Positions 5,965 through 57,368 of a DNA stretch of 64,000 nucleotides are shown in pieces (the stretch's first letter is position 1; each line of letters starts with the position of its first letter). This stretch comes from an uncultured Chloroflexia bacterium (GTDB lineage: Bacteria; Chloroflexota; Limnocylindria; QHBO01). Below the pieces are notes generated by a model. The model saw only the letters and a program-made list of their open reading frames with translations, did not search any database and was not told the DNA's origin. Made by a program: the position numbers and the translations under genes. The DNA is taken from assembly GCA_963838125.1 (NCBI GenBank), contig CAWIPT010000007.1, forward strand, positions 1,060,237 to 1,124,236, in the 5' to 3' direction.

Positions 5965-7224
5965 TCAGTCCTGCTCGCGGTTCGGCTGGCGCAGGAAGCT
6001 GGGGATGTCAAGGTCGGTGTCGCCGTAGGCCGGTCGCTCGAGCGACGTCGGCCGGGTGGCCACCGGCTCGCGGTCCACGCTGCGGGAAACCTCCGCCGGC
6101 TCAGGCTCGGCCTCGGTCGACTCGGGGGCCGGAGTCACGGTGAAGGCCGTGCGCTCGATCCGCTCGCGCTCGATCTCGGCCAGCAGCTCGCGGCTCTTCT
6201 CGTCGAGCGACGTTTCGATCCCGCCGGCGGCCTCCGCCGCGGCCGGTCGAACAGCCGGCTTGGGGCGGCTGCGGGCGGCGTCGAAGCCGGTGGCGATGAC
6301 GGTGACCTTCACCTCGTCGCGCATCCGGTCATCGATGACCGTGCCGAAGATGATGTTGGCCTCCGGATCAGCGGCCTCCTTGATCACCTCGGCCGCCTCG
6401 TTGACCTCGAACAGGCCGAGATCGCTGCCGCCGGTGACGTTGAACAGGATGCCGCGCGCGCCCTGGATGTTGATCTCCAGCAGCGGGCTCATGACCGCGG
6501 CGCGCGCGGCCTCCACGGCCCGGTTCTCGCCGGACCCGATCCCGATCCCCATCATGCTGCTCCCAGCCTCGCGCATGATCGTCTTCACGTCCGCGAAGTC
6601 CAGGTTGATGAGGCCCGGCACGGTGATCAGGTCGCTGATGCCCTGCACGCCCTGGCGCAGGACGTCGTCCACCACTCGGAACGCGTCGAGGATGGAGGTC
6701 TTCTTGTCGACGACCTCGCGCAGGCGGTCGTTGGGGATGGTGATGAGGGTGTCGACCTTGTCCTTCAAGGTCTCGGTGTACTGCTCGGCCACGAGCTTCC
6801 GGCGAGCGCCCTCGAAGCTGAACGGCTTGGTGACCACGGCCACGGTCAGGGCGCCGAGGTCCTTGGCGATCTCGGCCACGACATGGGCGGCACCAGAGCC
6901 GGTCCCTCCGCCCATCCCGGCGGTGATGAAGATCATGTCGGCGTCCTTGAGCGCCTCGTAGATCTTCTCGGAGTCCTCCTCGGCGGCGCGCTGCCCGATA
7001 GCCGGGTCGGCGCCGGCCCCGAGGCCACGGGTCATCTTGTCGCCGATGCGGATCTTGTGCGGCGCATCACTCTGGAGCAGCGCCTGGGCATCGGTGTTCA
7101 CGGCAATGAACTCGACGCCCATCATTTCGGCCCGGATCATGCGGTTGACGGCGTTGCTGCCTCCACCACCGATGCCGATGACCTTGATCAGGGCGAAGTT
7201 CTCTGCGTCGGACCGGAGCGGCAT
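5965..7224 (-). CDS. ftsZ: cell division GTPase FtsZ
   Basis: [13 protein letters not shown], tubulin signature GGGTGSG, Asp/Glu-rich C-terminal linker. Confidence 0.97.
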
Positions 7225-16751: not shown

Positions 16752-18200
16752 TCAGGCGTGATCATCCGCGGGCTGACCGATGAGCGCGGCCACCAGGCGG
16801 TCGAGGGCGAGGCCACGCGACGCCTTGACCAGGAGGACGTCGCCGGCGGTTGGGCCGAGGGTCCGCTCGACGACCTCGAGGGCGCTCTCGGCGTCCGGGG
16901 CGGTGGCCACCCGCGTGAGTCCGGCGGCGCGGGCAGCATCGGCGATCCAGCGCCCACGCTCCCCGACCGCGACCAGCCCGTCGACCACGCCCGCGGCCTC
17001 CCGGCCGATGCGCTCGTGCAGTGCCCGCTCGTCGGGACCGAGCTCGAGCATGTCGCCCAGGACGGCGTACCGCTGCCCGCCGCCGATCGGTGTCTCGGCC
17101 AGGAAGGCGAGCGCGGCGGCCACCGAGACCGGGGAGGCGTTGTACGTGTCGTCGACCAGGGTCGCGCCACCGGGCATGTCCATGATCGCCATCCGATGCG
17201 GGGCGTGGCTGCCGGCCTCCAGCGCGGCCGCGACCTCGGCCAGGGGGACGGCGAAATGCTCCGCCACCGCGGCTGCGGCGAGCGCGTGGGGCACGAGATG
17301 GCGACCCGGTGACGCGCTCCGCATCCTCTGCTCGCCCCACGGTGCGGTCAGCGTGAAGGTCACGCCATCCAGGCCATCGGAGACGACGTCGGTGGCGCGG
17401 ACGTCGGCGGCATCGGTCAGGCCAAAGGTGCGCACGGTGGCCGCAGTCTGGGCGGCCATGGCCGCGACCCGTGGGTCGTCCGCGTTCAGCACGGCCAGCC
17501 CCTCGGCGGGCAGCCCACGCGGGAGCTCGGACTTCGCCTGCGCGATGTTCTCCAGGCTGCCGGCCCGCTGGAGATGGGTGGGATGGACGGCGAGCACGAC
17601 CCCGACCTCCGGCCGGCTGATCTCGACCAGGCGGGCGATCTCGCCGATGGCATACATCCCCATCTCGAGGACCGCGACCTGGTGGGTCGGCTCCAGGTGG
17701 AGGAGGGTCATGGGCAGGCCCGTCTCGGAGTTCAGGTTGCCCTCGTTGCGCAGGACATGGAGGGTGCGCGACAGGGTGTCGGCGGTGACCTCCTTGGCCA
17801 GGGTCTTGCCCGTGGAGCCGGTGATGCCCACCACCCGAACCGGGAAGCGCTCCCGCCACCGCATGGCGAGGTCCTGGAGGGCGCGAAGGCTGTCGGCCAC
17901 CCGCACGATGGCGGCGTCTGTGCCGGCAGGCAGCGTGACGTCGTGCTCGACGAGGGCGGCGACCGCGCCGGCGGCGAGGGCCTGGGCCACGTACCGGTGG
18001 CCGTCGTCACGCTCGCCGCGGAGGGCCACGAACAGGGACCCGGGTACGACACGCCGGGAGTCGACGGCGGCAAGGGTGAATGACCGAACGCTGGTCTTGG
18101 ACTGCAGCCGGCCGCCGGTGGCGGCCAGCAGGTCGTCGATGCGGATGTGCGCTGGCACGCGGTTCCCTGCGGCGGTCGGCGGGGAGTCTACCAGCCTCAT
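16752..18200 (-). CDS. murF: UDP-N-acetylmuramoyl-tripeptide--D-alanyl-D-alanine ligase
   Basis: C-terminal 482 aa of ORF 16752..20012 starting MRLVDSPPTAAG; GITGSTGKT P-loop; DDTYNASPVSVAAAL is the MurF-type motif; ATG at 18200 overlaps the ftsI stop (ATGA). Confidence 0.9.
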   Translation of the reverse strand: MRLVDSPPTAAGNRVPAHIRIDDLLAATGGRLQSKTSVRSFTLAAVDSRRVVPGSLFVALRGERDDGHRYVAQALAAGAVAALVEHDVTLPAGTDAAIVRVADSLRALQDLAMRWRERFPVRVVGITGSTGKTLAKEVTADTLSRTLHVLRNEGNLNSETGLPMTLLHLEPTHQVAVLEMGMYAIGEIARLVEISRPEVGVVLAVHPTHLQRAGSLENIAQAKSELPRGLPAEGLAVLNADDPRVAAMAAQTAATVRTFGLTDAADVRATDVVSDGLDGVTFTLTAPWGEQRMRSASPGRHLVPHALAAAAVAEHFAVPLAEVAAALEAGSHAPHRMAIMDMPGGATLVDDTYNASPVSVAAALAFLAETPIGGGQRYAVLGDMLELGPDERALHERIGREAAGVVDGLVAVGERGRWIADAARAAGLTRVATAPDAESALEVVERTLGPTAGDVLLVKASRGLALDRLVAALIGQPADDHA

Positions 18201-20012
18201 GGCCGGGCAACCCCCGGCGCCGGCCGGTCGGGCGCGATGCCGAAGTAGTCGAACACGAGCGGGGCGAGCTGGGCGAACGCGACCTCCGGCCGCTCCCCGA
18301 TGCCCGAGCTGCCGACCACCGGGCGGTGGATGAGCACCATCATCACGTAGCGCGGATTGGAGGCCGGCGCGATCCCGATGAAGCTCGAGTCCACCCAGCC
18401 CTCGATGTACGCCTGCTGGGTCTGCTCCACGTAGACCGGCTGGCCGTTGGCGTCGGTGCCATTCTGGACACGGACCTTCACCGGGCCCGCCACCTGGGCC
18501 GTGCCCGTCTTGCCCGCGATCGAGTACCCGGCCACGGCCGCCCCGTTCGCGATCCCGTCGTCGATGGCCCCGGTCAGCATCTCGAGCACGGTGGCCGAGG
18601 TGGTCGGCTCGATGACCTGCGGCGCCTCGTCGCGCCGGCCGGGGGACGAACGTGCCATCCGCCGCCGTCCAGCCGGACACGACGTGCGGCGTGACCAGGC
18701 GCCCGCCGTTGGCGATGGCCGCGTACGCCGCCGCCATCTGCACCACGGTGACGCTGATGCCCTGGCCGAAGGCGTTCTGGGCGGTGGTCAGCTCCTTCGA
18801 CGCGCCCTCGTCATCGGGATGGAGGACGACGCCGGTGGCCTCGCCGGCGAGGTCGATCCCGGTCGGCGAGCCGAACCCGAACCGGACCAGCCCGTCGTAC
18901 AGCCCGTCCCCACCGAGGGTCAACCCGATGGTGGCCGCGCCAACGTTGTTCGACAGGGCGAGCACCTCAGCCGGGGTGATGAGCCCGTGCCCACTCGGCC
19001 ACCACTGGCGATCGGCGTTGCTGATGGTGGCGTCGTAGACCTGCAGGTTGTTGTCGTCCAGGAACAGGTCCGACGGGCTGATCGCGCCCGCGTCCAGCGC
19101 GGCGGCCACGGTGACCGCCTTGAGCACCGATCCGGGCTCGTACTGGCGGCTGACGGCGGGGTTCGAGAACAGCGTCGGATCGGTGGTCGGGTACTGGTTG
19201 GCGTCGAAGGTCGGCACCGATGACAACGCCAGGATGGCGCCGGTGTTCGCGTCCATGATCAGCCCGGTCACCCCCTTCGCCCGGTTCCGGGTGAAGGTGT
19301 CGAGCATCTGGTCCTCGAGGATGTGCTGGAGGCCGGCGTCGATGGTCAGGGTCACGTCCGCGCCGTCGACCGGCGCCGACAGCTCGTGGACCGAGCCGGC
19401 GATCAGGCGGCCGGCCACGTCCTCCTGGGCCACCACCGATCCGGGCGTGCCGGCGAGGAGCGCGTCGTTGGCGCCCTCGACCCCGTACTGGCCGACCCCG
19501 TCCACGTTCACGAACCCGAGGACCTGCGACGCGAGGGTCGTCCCGGACGCCGCCCCACCCATGGTGTAGACCCGCTCGGACTCGGGGACGAGGCCGACCC
19601 CGGGCAAATCGAGGGCCCGGACGCGGGTGGCCGTCTCGACATCGACGCGACGGCTGAGCCAGATCCACGCCTCACCGCTGCCCAGGGTCGCTTCCAGATC
19701 GGCGACTTCGATGCCCAGGATCCCGCTCAGGAGCAATGCGGCCCGCGCCGGGTCCTCGATGGTGGGTGGCGTGGCGAACACCGACTCGGTGGCCATCGAG
19801 GTGGCCAGGATCAGGCCCTCGCGGTCGAGGATGAGGCCGCGCGCGGCGGGAATCTGCTGCGCGTGGGCCAGCTGGGCGAGGCCCATCTCGGCCAGGTGCT
19901 CGCGGTCGATGACCTGCCACCAGACCAGCCGATAGCCGATCACGCCTGCGACCAGCGAGGCCACCACCAGCATGACCACGGCCCGGATTCGACTGTCGGT
20001 TCTGGCAAGCAT
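18197..20012 (-). CDS. ftsI: class B penicillin-binding protein FtsI (transpeptidase) with a frame discontinuity near 18640-18650
   Basis: N-terminal and SxxK region lie in the frame of ORF 16752..20012. The KTGTAQ motif and C-terminus lie in the frame of ORF 18197..18658. The junction is at a C5/G5 homopolymer (gtcccccggcc). Confidence 0.85.
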
Positions 20013-21653: not shown

Positions 21654-21745
21654 GCGTGACTGTCCCTCGAGGGTCCGGTGACGGGCCGAGCGGCCCGGAG
21701 ACGCATCAATGGCCCGGTCGTGACGTGCGTCATGGCGCCACGGGC

Positions 21746-22195
21746 CTAGATCCCCAGGTCCTGCAACTGCTCCGCCAGTGCCTCCGGTTCGTTCTCCATC
21801 CGACCGCGGTACGGCTCCCAGGCAGACGGTGTCCAGATCTCGAGCCGGTTCAGGGCGCCGACGACGACGACCTCCCCCGTTTCGAGGCCGGCATAGGTGC
21901 GGAGGTACTGCGGGACAAGGAGGCGACCCTGTTTGTCGAGCTCCGCCTCGACGGCCCCCGACGCCATGAACCTGGCGAACTGGCGCGCCTGCGGGTTGGT
22001 CAACGGGAGGGCCCGCAGCTTCTCGGCCAGCTCCTCCCACGCGTCACGGGGATAGACGGCGATGCAGGTATCCAGCCAGCGGGTAATGGTGGCTCCCGCC
22101 GAAAGGCGTGGCCGGAAGCGCGCCGGGACCGCGACTCGGCCGCGGTCATCCAGCGCGTGGCGATACTCGCCGGTCAGGAACGGGGTCCTCTCCAA
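21746..22195 (-). CDS. mraZ: transcriptional regulator MraZ
   Basis: 149 aa; two MraZ repeats (LDDRGRVAVPARFR / LDKQGRLLVPQYLR); first gene of the dcw cluster; listed start is TTG. Confidence 0.9.
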   Translation of the reverse strand: MERTPFLTGEYRHALDDRGRVAVPARFRPRLSAGATITRWLDTCIAVYPRDAWEELAEKLRALPLTNPQARQFARFMASGAVEAELDKQGRLLVPQYLRTYAGLETGEVVVVGALNRLEIWTPSAWEPYRGRMENEPEALAEQLQDLGI

Positions 22196-22201
22196 TCAAA
22201 T

Positions 22202-22231
22202 CCCCTACCACTGTTCCCCATTTGACCCCAC
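22202..22231 (-). promoter_or_regulatory. direct TGGGG/AGGGG repeats at 11-14 bp spacing in the mraZ 5' leader (candidate MraZ boxes)
   Basis: minus strand reads AAAGTGGGGTCAAATGGGGAACAGTGGTAGGGG between the predicted -10 and the mraZ start. Confidence 0.35.
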
Positions 22232-22249
22232 TTTGGGCCACAGGGCGCC

Positions 22250-22277
22250 ATCTTACAGGGCACAGCGACCCCGTCAA
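22250..22277 (-). promoter_or_regulatory. sigma70-like promoter upstream of mraZ (Pmra candidate): -35 TTGACG, 16-nt spacer, -10 TAAGAT
   Basis: minus-strand TTGACG at 22277-22272 and TAAGAT at 22255-22250; about 55 nt upstream of the mraZ start. Confidence 0.4.
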
Positions 22278-22324
22278 GGTCAATTTCGCGGGAATCCGCG
22301 GGCCGGCGCGAGGGCTCGTCGGCG

Positions 22325-22379
22325 GGTCAGGCGGGCGGTCAGGCGGGGCGGTCAGGCGGGCGATGGCCCGCCGGTCAGG
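22325..22379. repeat. tandem direct repeats GGTCAGGCGGG(G)C x3 plus a fourth GGTCAGGT, period 12-13 bp
   Basis: gggtcaggcgggcggtcaggcggggcggtcaggcgggc ... ccggtcaggtc. Lies 130-185 nt upstream of the mraZ start and overlaps the 3' end of the upstream ORF. Confidence 0.6.
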
Positions 22380-23310
22380 TCTGGCTGGGCGGGATTACGG
22401 CGTACCGCAACGAGCCGTCCGGCCCGCGGTACACCTCCCGGATGACGGAACAGGCCGGACTCGCCGCGAATGTACGACCAGCCCGACACCTCTCCCTCGA
22501 GCACGCGCCAGTGCAGCAGGCCGTTGTCGGCTTCGACCCGATCGACGGGCGCCTGGCTCACCGCGTCGAAGAAGACGCGGTTCTGATCAATCACCTCCCC
22601 TGCGTCATTGACGCGAAAGATCTGGTTCGTGCCCGGGGCCACGGTCACCTCCCACCCGATGAATTCGTCGCCCGGTGCTGGGGTCGGATCCGGAGTGGCA
22701 CTGGGGAGGGCCGATTCGATGGCCGACTCGGATGGCTCCGCGCTCGGGCGTCACGGACGGCATGCGGGGTTGGCGTCGGATTCGTGGCCACCGCACCCGG
22801 GCCGCCGAGGAACCACCAGGCCGCCCCGCCGCCGACCAGCAGGAGCAGCACCAGGAGCACGACGGCCCATCGGCGACGGTCGCCGCCATCGGAGGGCGGC
22901 GCGGCGACCGGCCTGGGCGGGGGTGGTGGCGGGACGCGCTGCGGCGGCCGGCGCAGGGCCTCGAGCTCGTCGGTCGGGATGACCAGCACGCCGCGCAGGT
23001 AGCGCGGGCAGTTGGCGTAGCCGCGCTGGAGGCACACGTTCCGCTGCTGGTCGCCGGACACCGGCTCGGGTTCGCCAAAGGCATAGCAGCGGTGCTCGTC
23101 AGTGGCCTGGGGGTCGTAGTCCGCGCGGGCAGCGGCCAGCCCCAGGAACGGGCACACCGTTTCGGGGCGCAGGGCCAGCTTCTCGAACAGCGCCTGCCGC
23201 TCGGCGTCGGCCGTTGACGGCGGAGGCGTGCTGCCTCGCCTGAACATGCCTCCGAGGATAGCGCCCCGACCCGCGTCGCTCGACCCGGTCGAGCGAGCCG
23301 TTCGGGCCAT
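22352..23310 (-). CDS. hypothetical membrane protein: N-terminal Cys-rich (zinc-ribbon-like) cytoplasmic domain, Pro-rich linker, single TM, Pro/Thr-rich linker, extracytoplasmic domain; frame discontinuity near 22745-22760
   Basis: ORF 22645..23310 carries CPFLG..HRCYAFG..CLQRGYANCPRY plus TM WAVVLLVLLLLVGGGAAWWFLGG. The frame of ORF 22352..22648 is open and protein-like upstream of its listed start (…PSATPDPTPAPGDEFIGWEVTVAPGTNQIFRVNDAGEV…). This suggests one gene split by an indel. Confidence 0.5.
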
Positions 23311-23364
23311 GGTACGAACGCGCCATTGAGCATCCCCCTATTGGCCGCGCAGGCTCGTGATCTC

Positions 23365-23601
23365 ATGGCGGTCGAACGCATCGCCGCGCCGCAACGGACT
23401 CCGATTCCTCGCGCCGGACAGATCCGTCGCTGCAGCGTACGGCACGTGGCCATCACGCCGGTCCCCGGCGGTCGCGAGGTGCAGGTCAGCTGCCTGCTCG
23501 GCGGACGCGACTACCCGCTCCCCCTCGGCTCCTTTGCCGAAGCCAGGCCCATCTGCAACGCGTGCACGGCCAAGGGCATCTGGCGGGCCGACGAGGACTG
23601 A
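23365..23601 (+). CDS. hypothetical small Cys/His-containing protein (about 78 aa)
   Basis: MAVERIAAPQ...RRCSVRHV...VSCLLGG...PICNACTAKGIW; strong GC3 codon bias consistent with coding; no recognisable family. Confidence 0.35.
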   Translation: MAVERIAAPQRTPIPRAGQIRRCSVRHVAITPVPGGREVQVSCLLGGRDYPLPLGSFAEARPICNACTAKGIWRADED

Positions 23602-51687: not shown

Positions 51688-53923
<2,236 letters not shown>

Positions 53924-55842: not shown

Positions 55843-56442
55843 GTGAAAGGTACCCCGGGAGGGCGGCTGGAGTTCAAACGCTTCTGGGCTACCATCCGTG
55901 ACGTGGAGGAGAACTCGCGGAGCACCGACTTCGTCGAGCTGCACGCCGATCGTCTCTTCGGCTTCGCCATGATCGTGACCCTGGGGGACACGATCATCGC
56001 CGGCAAGCTCGCGGCGGAGGCGCTGGCGAAAGGCGTCGATCGCATCGAGCAGCTCCGCCATCCGGTGCGCGCCGCCGCGTGGCTGCGCGGTGCCGTCAGG
56101 AAAGCCGCTGGTCGTCCGGCCTGGGGCCACCGTCGGCCGGCCGACACCGAGCGCCGCGATGCGCTCCAGGCGCTGGGCGTGGACGCAGCGACGTACGACG
56201 CGCTGGCTAGCCTGGACGTCCGAGGCCGGGCGGCGGTGGCGGCGACGGCGGTTGAGGGGTTTTCCCCGGCGGACGTATTCGAGATCGTGGGCAGCGACGA
56301 GGAGGTGCGGAAGGCCCGTCGCGACTTCCTCACCGCCTACCTTGCCTCGTCGGCGACACGCGAGACCGCGCCTCCCGCAGGTGACCTTGCCTCTCGGGTG
56401 AAGTCAGTTGCGGCACCCGTGTTCGCTGGATCGAAGAAGTGA
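55843..56442 (+). CDS. ECF-type sigma factor (short, divergent)
   Basis: region 2-like FGFAMIVTLGDTIIAGKLAAEALAKG...AAAWLRGAV and region 4-like LDVRGRAAVAATAVEGFSPADVFEIVG; overlaps the downstream anti-sigma gene (TGATG). Confidence 0.55.
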   Translation: MKGTPGGRLEFKRFWATIRDVEENSRSTDFVELHADRLFGFAMIVTLGDTIIAGKLAAEALAKGVDRIEQLRHPVRAAAWLRGAVRKAAGRPAWGHRRPADTERRDALQALGVDAATYDALASLDVRGRAAVAATAVEGFSPADVFEIVGSDEEVRKARRDFLTAYLASSATRETAPPAGDLASRVKSVAAPVFAGSKK

Positions 56443-57368
56443 CCGATTCCCATCACCTCCTTGAAGCGTGGCTCGTGGAAGGGGCCGCGGGCGATCCGCC
56501 CCGCGAGCTGGCCGTGCACGCATCGGTCTGCGAATCCTGTGCCCGGCGCCTGGGCGCGTTCGACTCGCTGGCGGGAGTTGACGTTGCTGCGGCCGGCTCT
56601 CCCCCACCATTACCGCCACCCACGCGCGTGGCGGCAGCGCTCCTCTGGGCGCGGCTGGCGACCGCCGTGGCGGGAACGGTCGTGGCCGGCATCCTCGTCG
56701 TGTTCGGGATCTCGCAGCTCGTCGGGTTTGTCGGCTCGCTCGAGGGCAGCCCCGGTCCGTCCATCGTCGGACTGGCGACGCCGGCAGACTCCCAGAACCC
56801 GGGCGACACGCCCGGCCCGCAACCCGCGGTCGAACCCAGCCTGGCGACGGAGCCGTCCGGCACGCCTATTCCCTCGCACATCCCCCTGCCGTCACTCGCG
56901 CCGAACGAGCAACCACCCGATCCGCCGAACGCGCCCTCCCTCTCACTGAACGGGGTGGGTGCGCACTCGATCAGCATCAGATGGACTCCACGCTCCGGCG
57001 GCGGGCCGGTCCAGAAATGGGAAATCTGGCGCCGGACCGGATCCGGGGCGACCTGGATCAAGCTCGGTGAGCTGCCGACCTCCGCGCAGACCCTGACCAA
57101 CAGCGGCCTGGCCTCGGGGACCTCCTACTCGTTCCGCGTTCGGGCCGTCAATGTCGCGTGGCTCAGCTCGTTCTCGAACACCATCACGGCGACAACATCC
57201 GTGCCGCCGCCAAGCGCCACGCCGGTTCCGACGGCCACCCCAACGCCGGAGCCATCGATTCCTGAGACTCCGACCCCGGAGCCATCGATTCCTGAGACTC
57301 CGACCCCGGAGCCATCGATTCCTGAGACTCCGACCCCGGAGCCATCGATTCCACCTCCGTCGCCATAA
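56439..57368 (+). CDS. anti-sigma factor-like membrane protein: N-terminal ZAS motif, one TM, extracytoplasmic fibronectin type III domain, C-terminal (TPEPSIPE)x4 repeats
   Basis: HASVCESCARRL (H-x3-C-x2-C); TM AGTVVAGILVVFGISQLVGFV; FN3-like ISIRWTPRSGGGPVQKWEIW...SYSFRVRAVN. Confidence 0.65.
   Translation: MTDSHHLLEAWLVEGAAGDPPRELAVHASVCESCARRLGAFDSLAGVDVAAAGSPPPLPPPTRVAAALLWARLATAVAGTVVAGILVVFGISQLVGFVGSLEGSPGPSIVGLATPADSQNPGDTPGPQPAVEPSLATEPSGTPIPSHIPLPSLAPNEQPPDPPNAPSLSLNGVGAHSISIRWTPRSGGGPVQKWEIWRRTGSGATWIKLGELPTSAQTLTNSGLASGTSYSFRVRAVNVAWLSSFSNTITATTSVPPPSATPVPTATPTPEPSIPETPTPEPSIPETPTPEPSIPETPTPEPSIPPPSP
57246..57357. repeat. tandem 30-nt repeat x3.7 (ccggagccatcgattcctgagactccgacc) encoding TPEPSIPE units
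   Basis: seen directly in the sequence. Confidence 0.85.

Follow-up and report, generated by a model that had tools for sequence, protein, structure and literature searches.

In Escherichia coli, the promoter Pmra (mraZ1p) carries three GTGGG direct repeats to which MraZ binds (Eraso et al. 2014, as cited in PMC12957436 and in bioRxiv 10.1101/2022.02.09.479790). In Bacillus subtilis, three GTGG[A/T]G repeats that are unique in the genome are required for repression, and the DXXXR motifs of MraZ are required for DNA binding (bioRxiv 10.1101/2022.02.09.479790). In Mycoplasma genitalium, GTG(G/T) boxes separated by 6-nt spacers are bound cooperatively, transcription starts inside box 1, and repression is lost stepwise as boxes are mutated (PMC12957436). 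Most bacteria have three such boxes, and some Mycoplasma have four (PMC12957436). We have analyzed the region upstream of mraZ in a 64,000-nucleotide (nt) stretch of DNA from an uncultured Chloroflexia bacterium (contig CAWIPT010000007.1; hereafter, the window). Minus-strand positions 22287-22195, which head a complete cluster of genes for division and the cell wall (dcw) that extends from mraZ to ftsZ, very probably comprise Pmra and an MraZ operator, and a tandem array of the unit GGTCAGGCGGG further upstream is a separate feature, most likely a slippage duplication without a regulatory role.

A conserved promoter and box array in the mraZ leader

A promoter scan of positions 21700-23400 returned one sigma-70-like match, TTGACG-16-TAAGAT on the minus strand (0.0 expected from shuffles), in which 9 of the 12 consensus positions are matched. 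Hexamers near TTGACA/TATAAT with a spacer of 16-18 nt are the signature of a sigma-70 promoter, and both are present here, the end of the -10 hexamer lying 55 nt from the TTG start codon of mraZ (22195). From within this hexamer onwards, five (G/A)TGG boxes (three GTGG and two ATGG) follow one another in phase along the leader, with an exact period of 10 nt, spanning 22251-22208 (Table 1). A search of both strands of the 64 kb for five boxes in this arrangement returned a single match even with one mismatch allowed (0.00 expected), and a three-box pattern is found within the window at this site only (0.12 expected). The features by which an MraZ operator is recognized in sequence, at least three repeats of the GTGG/GTGT type, a 10-nt period, a position directly 5' of mraZ, and a box sequence and phase that are conserved in relatives, are all present.

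We compared the region across 126 mraZ loci that were collected from both genomes and metagenomes, 118 of them with enough upstream sequence. The nearest relatives are metagenome-assembled genomes of Candidatus Limnocylindria (Chloroflexota), with MraZ identity of up to 95% (locus L001), and about 35 such relatives provided 29 distinct upstream sequences. Throughout these 29, the succession of CCTTGACGGG, 16 nt, TAnnAT and boxes is near-invariant, and the DNA upstream of the short A-tract is conserved neither in sequence nor in length. The -10 hexamer reads TATGAT, TAGAAT or TATAGT in relatives, with T1, A2 and T6 invariant. The spacer between the hexamers is fixed in length; its leading G is conserved together with CCTTGACGGG, the next 10 nt or so are variable, and conservation returns over the final 6-7 nt (GCCCTG). 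Judged from the alignment, constrained hexamers and boxes amid free spacer and upstream DNA are the pattern expected of a promoter followed by protein-binding sites. Box arrays extend to other phyla: in the 200 nt upstream of mraZ, at least three in-phase boxes are present in 108 of the 118 loci (Chloroflexota, Bacillota, Actinomycetota and others), against none of 4212 control windows taken from the same loci. Their number follows lineage: Limnocylindria have five, Gaiellales/Thermoleophilia have four, and most Bacillota, like the other Chloroflexia, have three.

A first-pass annotation of this DNA had placed a sigma70-like promoter about 55 nt 5' of mraZ and had likened the leader to an MraZ operator. 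The promoter was recovered as the only scan match in its surroundings and is conserved, and the operator architecture is strongly supported by conservation in relatives, by the arrays of other phyla and by the E. coli layout described below. The repeats themselves had been given as TGGGG/TGGGG/AGGGG at about one helical turn, which holds for the two TGGGG (22230-22226 and 22220-22216), 10 nt apart and with their spacing kept in relatives, but not for AGGGG (22206-22202), which comes 14 nt later and does not share the phase of the boxes. The AGGGGA run at this place is weakly conserved, in a stretch that varies among relatives, and is a probable ribosome-binding site, not an MraZ box.

Read directly, the E. 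coli K-12 sequence runs TTGACA-17-TAAACT-cctttca (7 nt)-GTGGGaaattGTGGGgcaaaGTGGG-...-ATG. As in the window, a sigma-70 promoter is followed by boxes with a 10-nt period in the mraZ leader. The first box after the -10 hexamer lies at 8 nt in E. coli, and box 2 of the window at 9 nt, so that box 2 matches the first E. coli repeat in position and E. coli boxes 1-3 are equivalent to window boxes 2-4. The spacers are also similar (GTGGGGCAAAGTGGG in E. coli and GTGGCCCAAAGTGGGG in the window). The two loci differ in that E. coli has three boxes and the window five, with one over the -10 hexamer and one extra downstream by the ribosome-binding site, and in that two of the window boxes start with A instead of G. 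M. genitalium resembles the window in having more than three boxes, 6-nt spacers and a transcription start in or beside the first box (in the window, the expected start), but it has four boxes instead of five and an AT-rich genome without a recognizable -35 hexamer. With B. subtilis, the window shares 10-nt repeats with a GTGG core in Pmra, both DXXXR motifs in the protein and the uniqueness of the triple repeat (in the genome for B. subtilis, in the 64 kb here), whereas the repeats themselves differ, GTGG[A/T]G three times in B. subtilis against GTGGCC, GTGGGG, ATGGGG and GTGGTA in the window.

From the published work on these other species we infer that MraZ would bind and repress here too, and where transcription would start. 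RNA polymerase carrying the housekeeping sigma factor would recognize TTGACG-16 nt-TAAGAT and initiate near 22245-22241; a start 6-9 nt downstream of the -10 hexamer is typical of sigma-70 promoters. MraZ, as the first product of the operon, would bind the (G/A)TGG boxes cooperatively as an oligomer. Because their spacing is exactly one helical turn, the boxes would lie on one face of the DNA, where they would span from the edge of the -10 hexamer to about +35, and bound MraZ would block either polymerase binding or promoter escape. The expected outcome is negative autoregulation of mraZ-rsmH-ftsL-ftsI-mur...-ftsA-ftsZ.

The MraZ operator system is already known, and the only mildly new point is a count of five boxes where three or four are usual. 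A class-wide operator of five boxes in Candidatus Limnocylindria, from inside the -10 hexamer to the ribosome-binding site, is a tentative proposal that we consider somewhat doubtful. If it is true and all five boxes are bound, box number would be lineage-dependent (three, four or five), and either a different count of MraZ subunits would be engaged or the DNA would be wrapped differently round the MraZ ring. The five-box counts, and the four-box counts of Gaiellales/Thermoleophilia, offer comparative data on the number of sites per MraZ oligomer that are relevant to recent MraZ-DNA structures. The dcw promoter and the MraZ operator as such, with geometry as in E. coli, can be annotated confidently and class-wide in this uncultured Chloroflexota lineage.

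Table 1. Features of the mraZ upstream region, in window coordinates.
Feature	Position	Strand	Basis and remarks
mraZ coding sequence	21746..22195	-	149 amino acids (aa); TTG start at 22195-22193
AGGGGA, Shine-Dalgarno-like purine run	22201..22206	-	Read from sequence; 6 nt before start codon
Box 5, GTGGTA	22206..22211	-	In phase; (G/A)TGGT conserved in relatives
Box 4, ATGGGG	22216..22221	-	TGGGG invariant in relatives
Box 3, GTGGGG	22226..22231	-	TGGGG invariant in relatives
Box 2, GTGG	22238..22241	-	9 nt after -10; at or near expected transcription start
Box 1, ATGG	22248..22251	-	In phase; overlaps last two bases of -10; least certain box
-10 hexamer, TAAGAT	22250..22255	-	Promoter scan and relatives
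-35/-10 spacer, 16 nt	22256..22271	-	Ungapped alignment, per-column conservation
CCTTGACGGG, holding -35 hexamer TTGACG (22277-22272)	22270..22279	-	Promoter scan; invariant in 29/29 distinct relatives
GAAA, part of conserved A-rich tract just 5' of -35 (possibly an UP-like element)	22284..22287	-	GAAA(A/T) kept in 29 distinct Limnocylindria sequences
GGTCAGGCGGG tandem array, three exact units (22325, 22337, 22350), period 12-13	22325..22362	+	Tandem Repeats Finder (TRF) score 67
GC hairpin, GGCGGGC-CAUC-GCCCGCC	22355..22372	-	Centroid fold; 3 nt after true stop; 3' arm is first array unit
Upstream-gene stop, TGA, within degenerate CCTGACC copy (22373-22379)	22375..22377	-	Homology; stop column aligns across relatives
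Conserved upstream gene	22378..23247	-	tblastn; no Pfam family found

The heptamer GCCCTGT occurs twice around the -10 hexamer, 15 nt apart (22255-22261 and 22240-22246 on the minus strand), and both copies are kept in nearly all Limnocylindria relatives; the second overlaps box 2, and the first may be promoter-related or the site of another factor. Among the loci with four in-phase GTGG boxes (L041-L060 and L096-L122, from Gaiellales/Thermoleophilia and other Actinomycetota; for example, GTGGGGgattGTGGTCTAcaGTGGGGcgaaGTGGa), the array runs from about 41 nt to about 1 nt before the estimated mraZ start, which leaves scarcely any room for a ribosome-binding site.

The mraZ gene and its cluster

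The product of the gene belongs to the Pfam MraZ family (PF02381; E 7.9e-34, in two domain stretches). This family is characterized by two MraZ (SpoVT/AbrB-like) domains that each carry a DXXXR motif. Both motifs are present in the window protein, the first as DDRGR (residues 16-20) and the one of the second domain as DKQGR. The protein shares 36% identity with MraZ of E. coli K-12, and a phmmer search matched it to the solved structures 1n0e (M. pneumoniae; E 2e-15) and 9qlg (E 2e-14), although its relationship to the solved Mycoplasma MraZ chains is distant. No gene on record encodes an exactly identical MraZ. The start column of mraZ is occupied by TTG, GTG or ATG across relatives. On the same strand, mraZ is followed by rsmH, an FtsL/DivIC-like open reading frame (ORF), ftsI, Mur ligase genes, mraY, ftsW, murG, ddl, ftsA and ftsZ, the last of which, at 5965, is the far end of the cluster in the window.

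The tandem array upstream of the promoter

The three exact GGTCAGGCGGG units, with a degenerate fourth copy, CCTGACC (22379-22373), 22 nt away, agree with the array of three to four units and a 12-13 period that the first-pass annotation had described. The array is situated about 80-120 nt upstream of the promoter. Shuffled sequence rarely yields TRF arrays scoring at least 65 (0.13 per window), but nine are present in the real window. The same annotation had also taken the array to overlap the 3' end of the upstream gene, an overlap that was not confirmed: it is a frameshift near 22445 that takes the ORF as far as 22352. When the intact 309-aa homologue from L001 was used as a tblastn query, the window was matched by segments in frames -3, -2 and -3, with shifts near 22745 and 22445, and the match ended in ...IREVYRGPDGSLRYAVIPPSQT (...YAVIPPSQT) at 22378, directly before the TGA of Table 1. 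Because this TGA is the true end of the gene, the three exact units are entirely intergenic.

The proposal that the array is a second operator fared no better. Near mraZ, the GGTCAGGCGGG unit was found in none of the 126 related loci, including that with the 95% identical MraZ, and the array is absent from all of the about 35 Limnocylindria relatives; in 488 kb of related loci there are two isolated single copies, neither of them near mraZ. Among relatives, the spacer that separates the upstream gene from the promoter ranges from 43 to 111 nt and is conserved in neither sequence nor structure, and the array does not overlap the true gene end. A search of metagenome contigs for near relatives in which array copy number could be checked found no exact match to the window-specific promoter spacer. 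The array is most likely a recent, neutral and lineage-specific duplication that was generated by replication slippage in fast-evolving GC-rich spacer DNA, and it should not be read as a regulatory element.

An unrelated 24-nt tandem duplication (2.1 copies, TRF score 93) lies about 35-85 nt upstream of the -35 hexamer in locus L018, and its sibling L017 has a single copy of that unit in the equivalent spacer, which suggests that slippage is recurrent in spacers rich in GC. We also considered whether the GGTCAGGCGGG unit belongs to a dispersed repeat family and rejected this: with up to one mismatch, the window has 11 matches against 5.7 expected, three of which are the array itself, and the related loci hold only the two copies mentioned above.

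Alternative readings of the leader and the array

Several considerations weigh against the reading of the leader as promoter and operator. In this organism, the assignment is made from sequence. Box 1 is the least certain of the five, since the -10 hexamer already constrains its A and T, and its conservation could stem solely from this overlap and the bases that follow (it reads GTGG in L019 and L075 and ATGT in L014). For box 5, which reaches into the ribosome-binding region, translation signals could account for part of the conservation. The absence of the array from relatives, used above to dismiss it as an operator, is also compatible with a function specific to this lineage. Finally, a small leader hairpin (GUGGCYC...GGGGCC) is predicted by consensus folding and kept in 18-19 of 20 distinct sequences. 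This hairpin is the basis for an explanation in which the conserved leader acts as RNA, as a 5' untranslated hairpin or processing site that serves mraZ translation or stability, the GTGG periodicity being incidental. Long or processed dcw leaders have been reported elsewhere, for RNase III in C. glutamicum and UpsM in R. sphaeroides. However, the fold energy of the leader is not better than that of shuffled sequences (z -0.53), the paired positions show no two-sided (compensatory) change, their variation being limited to C/U opposite G, and in L017, L019 and L076 the hairpin is broken while the boxes and their phase are retained. Moreover, the 10-nt box array is common to phyla with otherwise unrelated leaders. 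An explanation at the RNA level thus seems very unlikely to us, and the promoter with its MraZ operator is still the preferred account of the leader.

The array could, on the other hand, have a function that the slippage account denies it, as a second operator from which MraZ or a different regulator acts on Pmra at -80 to -120, or as a plus-strand G-quadruplex. The three exact copies are certainly a real duplication, positions 22290-22360 of the plus strand fit a loose quadruplex motif (four runs of three or more G, loops of 1-12 nt), and a G-quadruplex has been reported in the mraZ promoter region of S. aureus, although downstream of that promoter (PMC11796246). Yet the units contain no GTGG box, their period of 12-13 nt does not keep them on one helical face, the array is missing even where MraZ is 95% identical, and the GGTCAGGCGGG unit shows no enrichment in the rest of the window (8 matches, leaving out the array's own three, against 5.7 expected). 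The window holds 29 loose quadruplex motifs and nine arrays of similar score, and we regard either function as highly improbable. A role for the array together with the post-stop hairpin in ending or stabilizing the transcript of the upstream gene, as terminator or 3' stem-loop, is unlikely, if less remote. The stem (7 bp, 22372-22366 with 22361-22355) begins 3 nt after the true stop, and GC-rich hairpins occur in the equivalent spacer of L003, L002, L008 and L014. The stem is not followed by a T-run, the terminator scan found no site there, the fold energy is again like that of shuffles (z -0.52), L010-L013, with their 43-nt spacer, have no hairpin at all, and the extra repeat units are unnecessary for the stem.

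Related candidates for this region were also discarded. An RNA element in the leader or spacer was rejected, as both fold like shuffles and the consensus fold shows no compensatory changes, and an Rfam search of the two (E up to 1) gave no match except a chance miRNA. A canonical three-tetrad quadruplex motif was looked for in the minus-strand leader and none was found. An intrinsic terminator after the upstream gene was rejected since the stem lacks a T-run and relatives share no conserved hairpin.

Other features of the window

The conserved gene that lies upstream of the promoter keeps its synteny across most Limnocylindria loci, with homologues in L001-L014, L017, L018 and L036. In its protein, an N-terminus rich in Cys (CPFLGL...HRCYAF...NVCLQ.GYANCPRY) is accompanied by a transmembrane segment and by a C-terminal domain that is conserved. 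Frameshifts are not restricted to this gene. In the minus-strand ORF at 16752-20012, out-of-frame sequence links a truncated FtsI transpeptidase with a Mur ligase, and in the region 51688-53923 of the same strand an Ala/Lys/Pro-rich ORF (53249-53923) runs into a sigma-70 ORF (51688-53490) in another frame. The presence of several genes broken in this manner suggests that the assembly is prone to indel errors, or that these are pseudogenes.

Tandem repeats also occur within coding sequence. Nested repeats of 12, 15, 24 and 27 nt (53526-53854) encode the Ala/Lys/Pro-rich low-complexity stretch just upstream of the sigma-70 gene, to which this stretch probably belongs, and a perfect 30-nt repeat (3.6 copies, 57246-57352) encodes the TPTPEPSIPE repeats that form the C-terminus of the ORF at 56439-57368.

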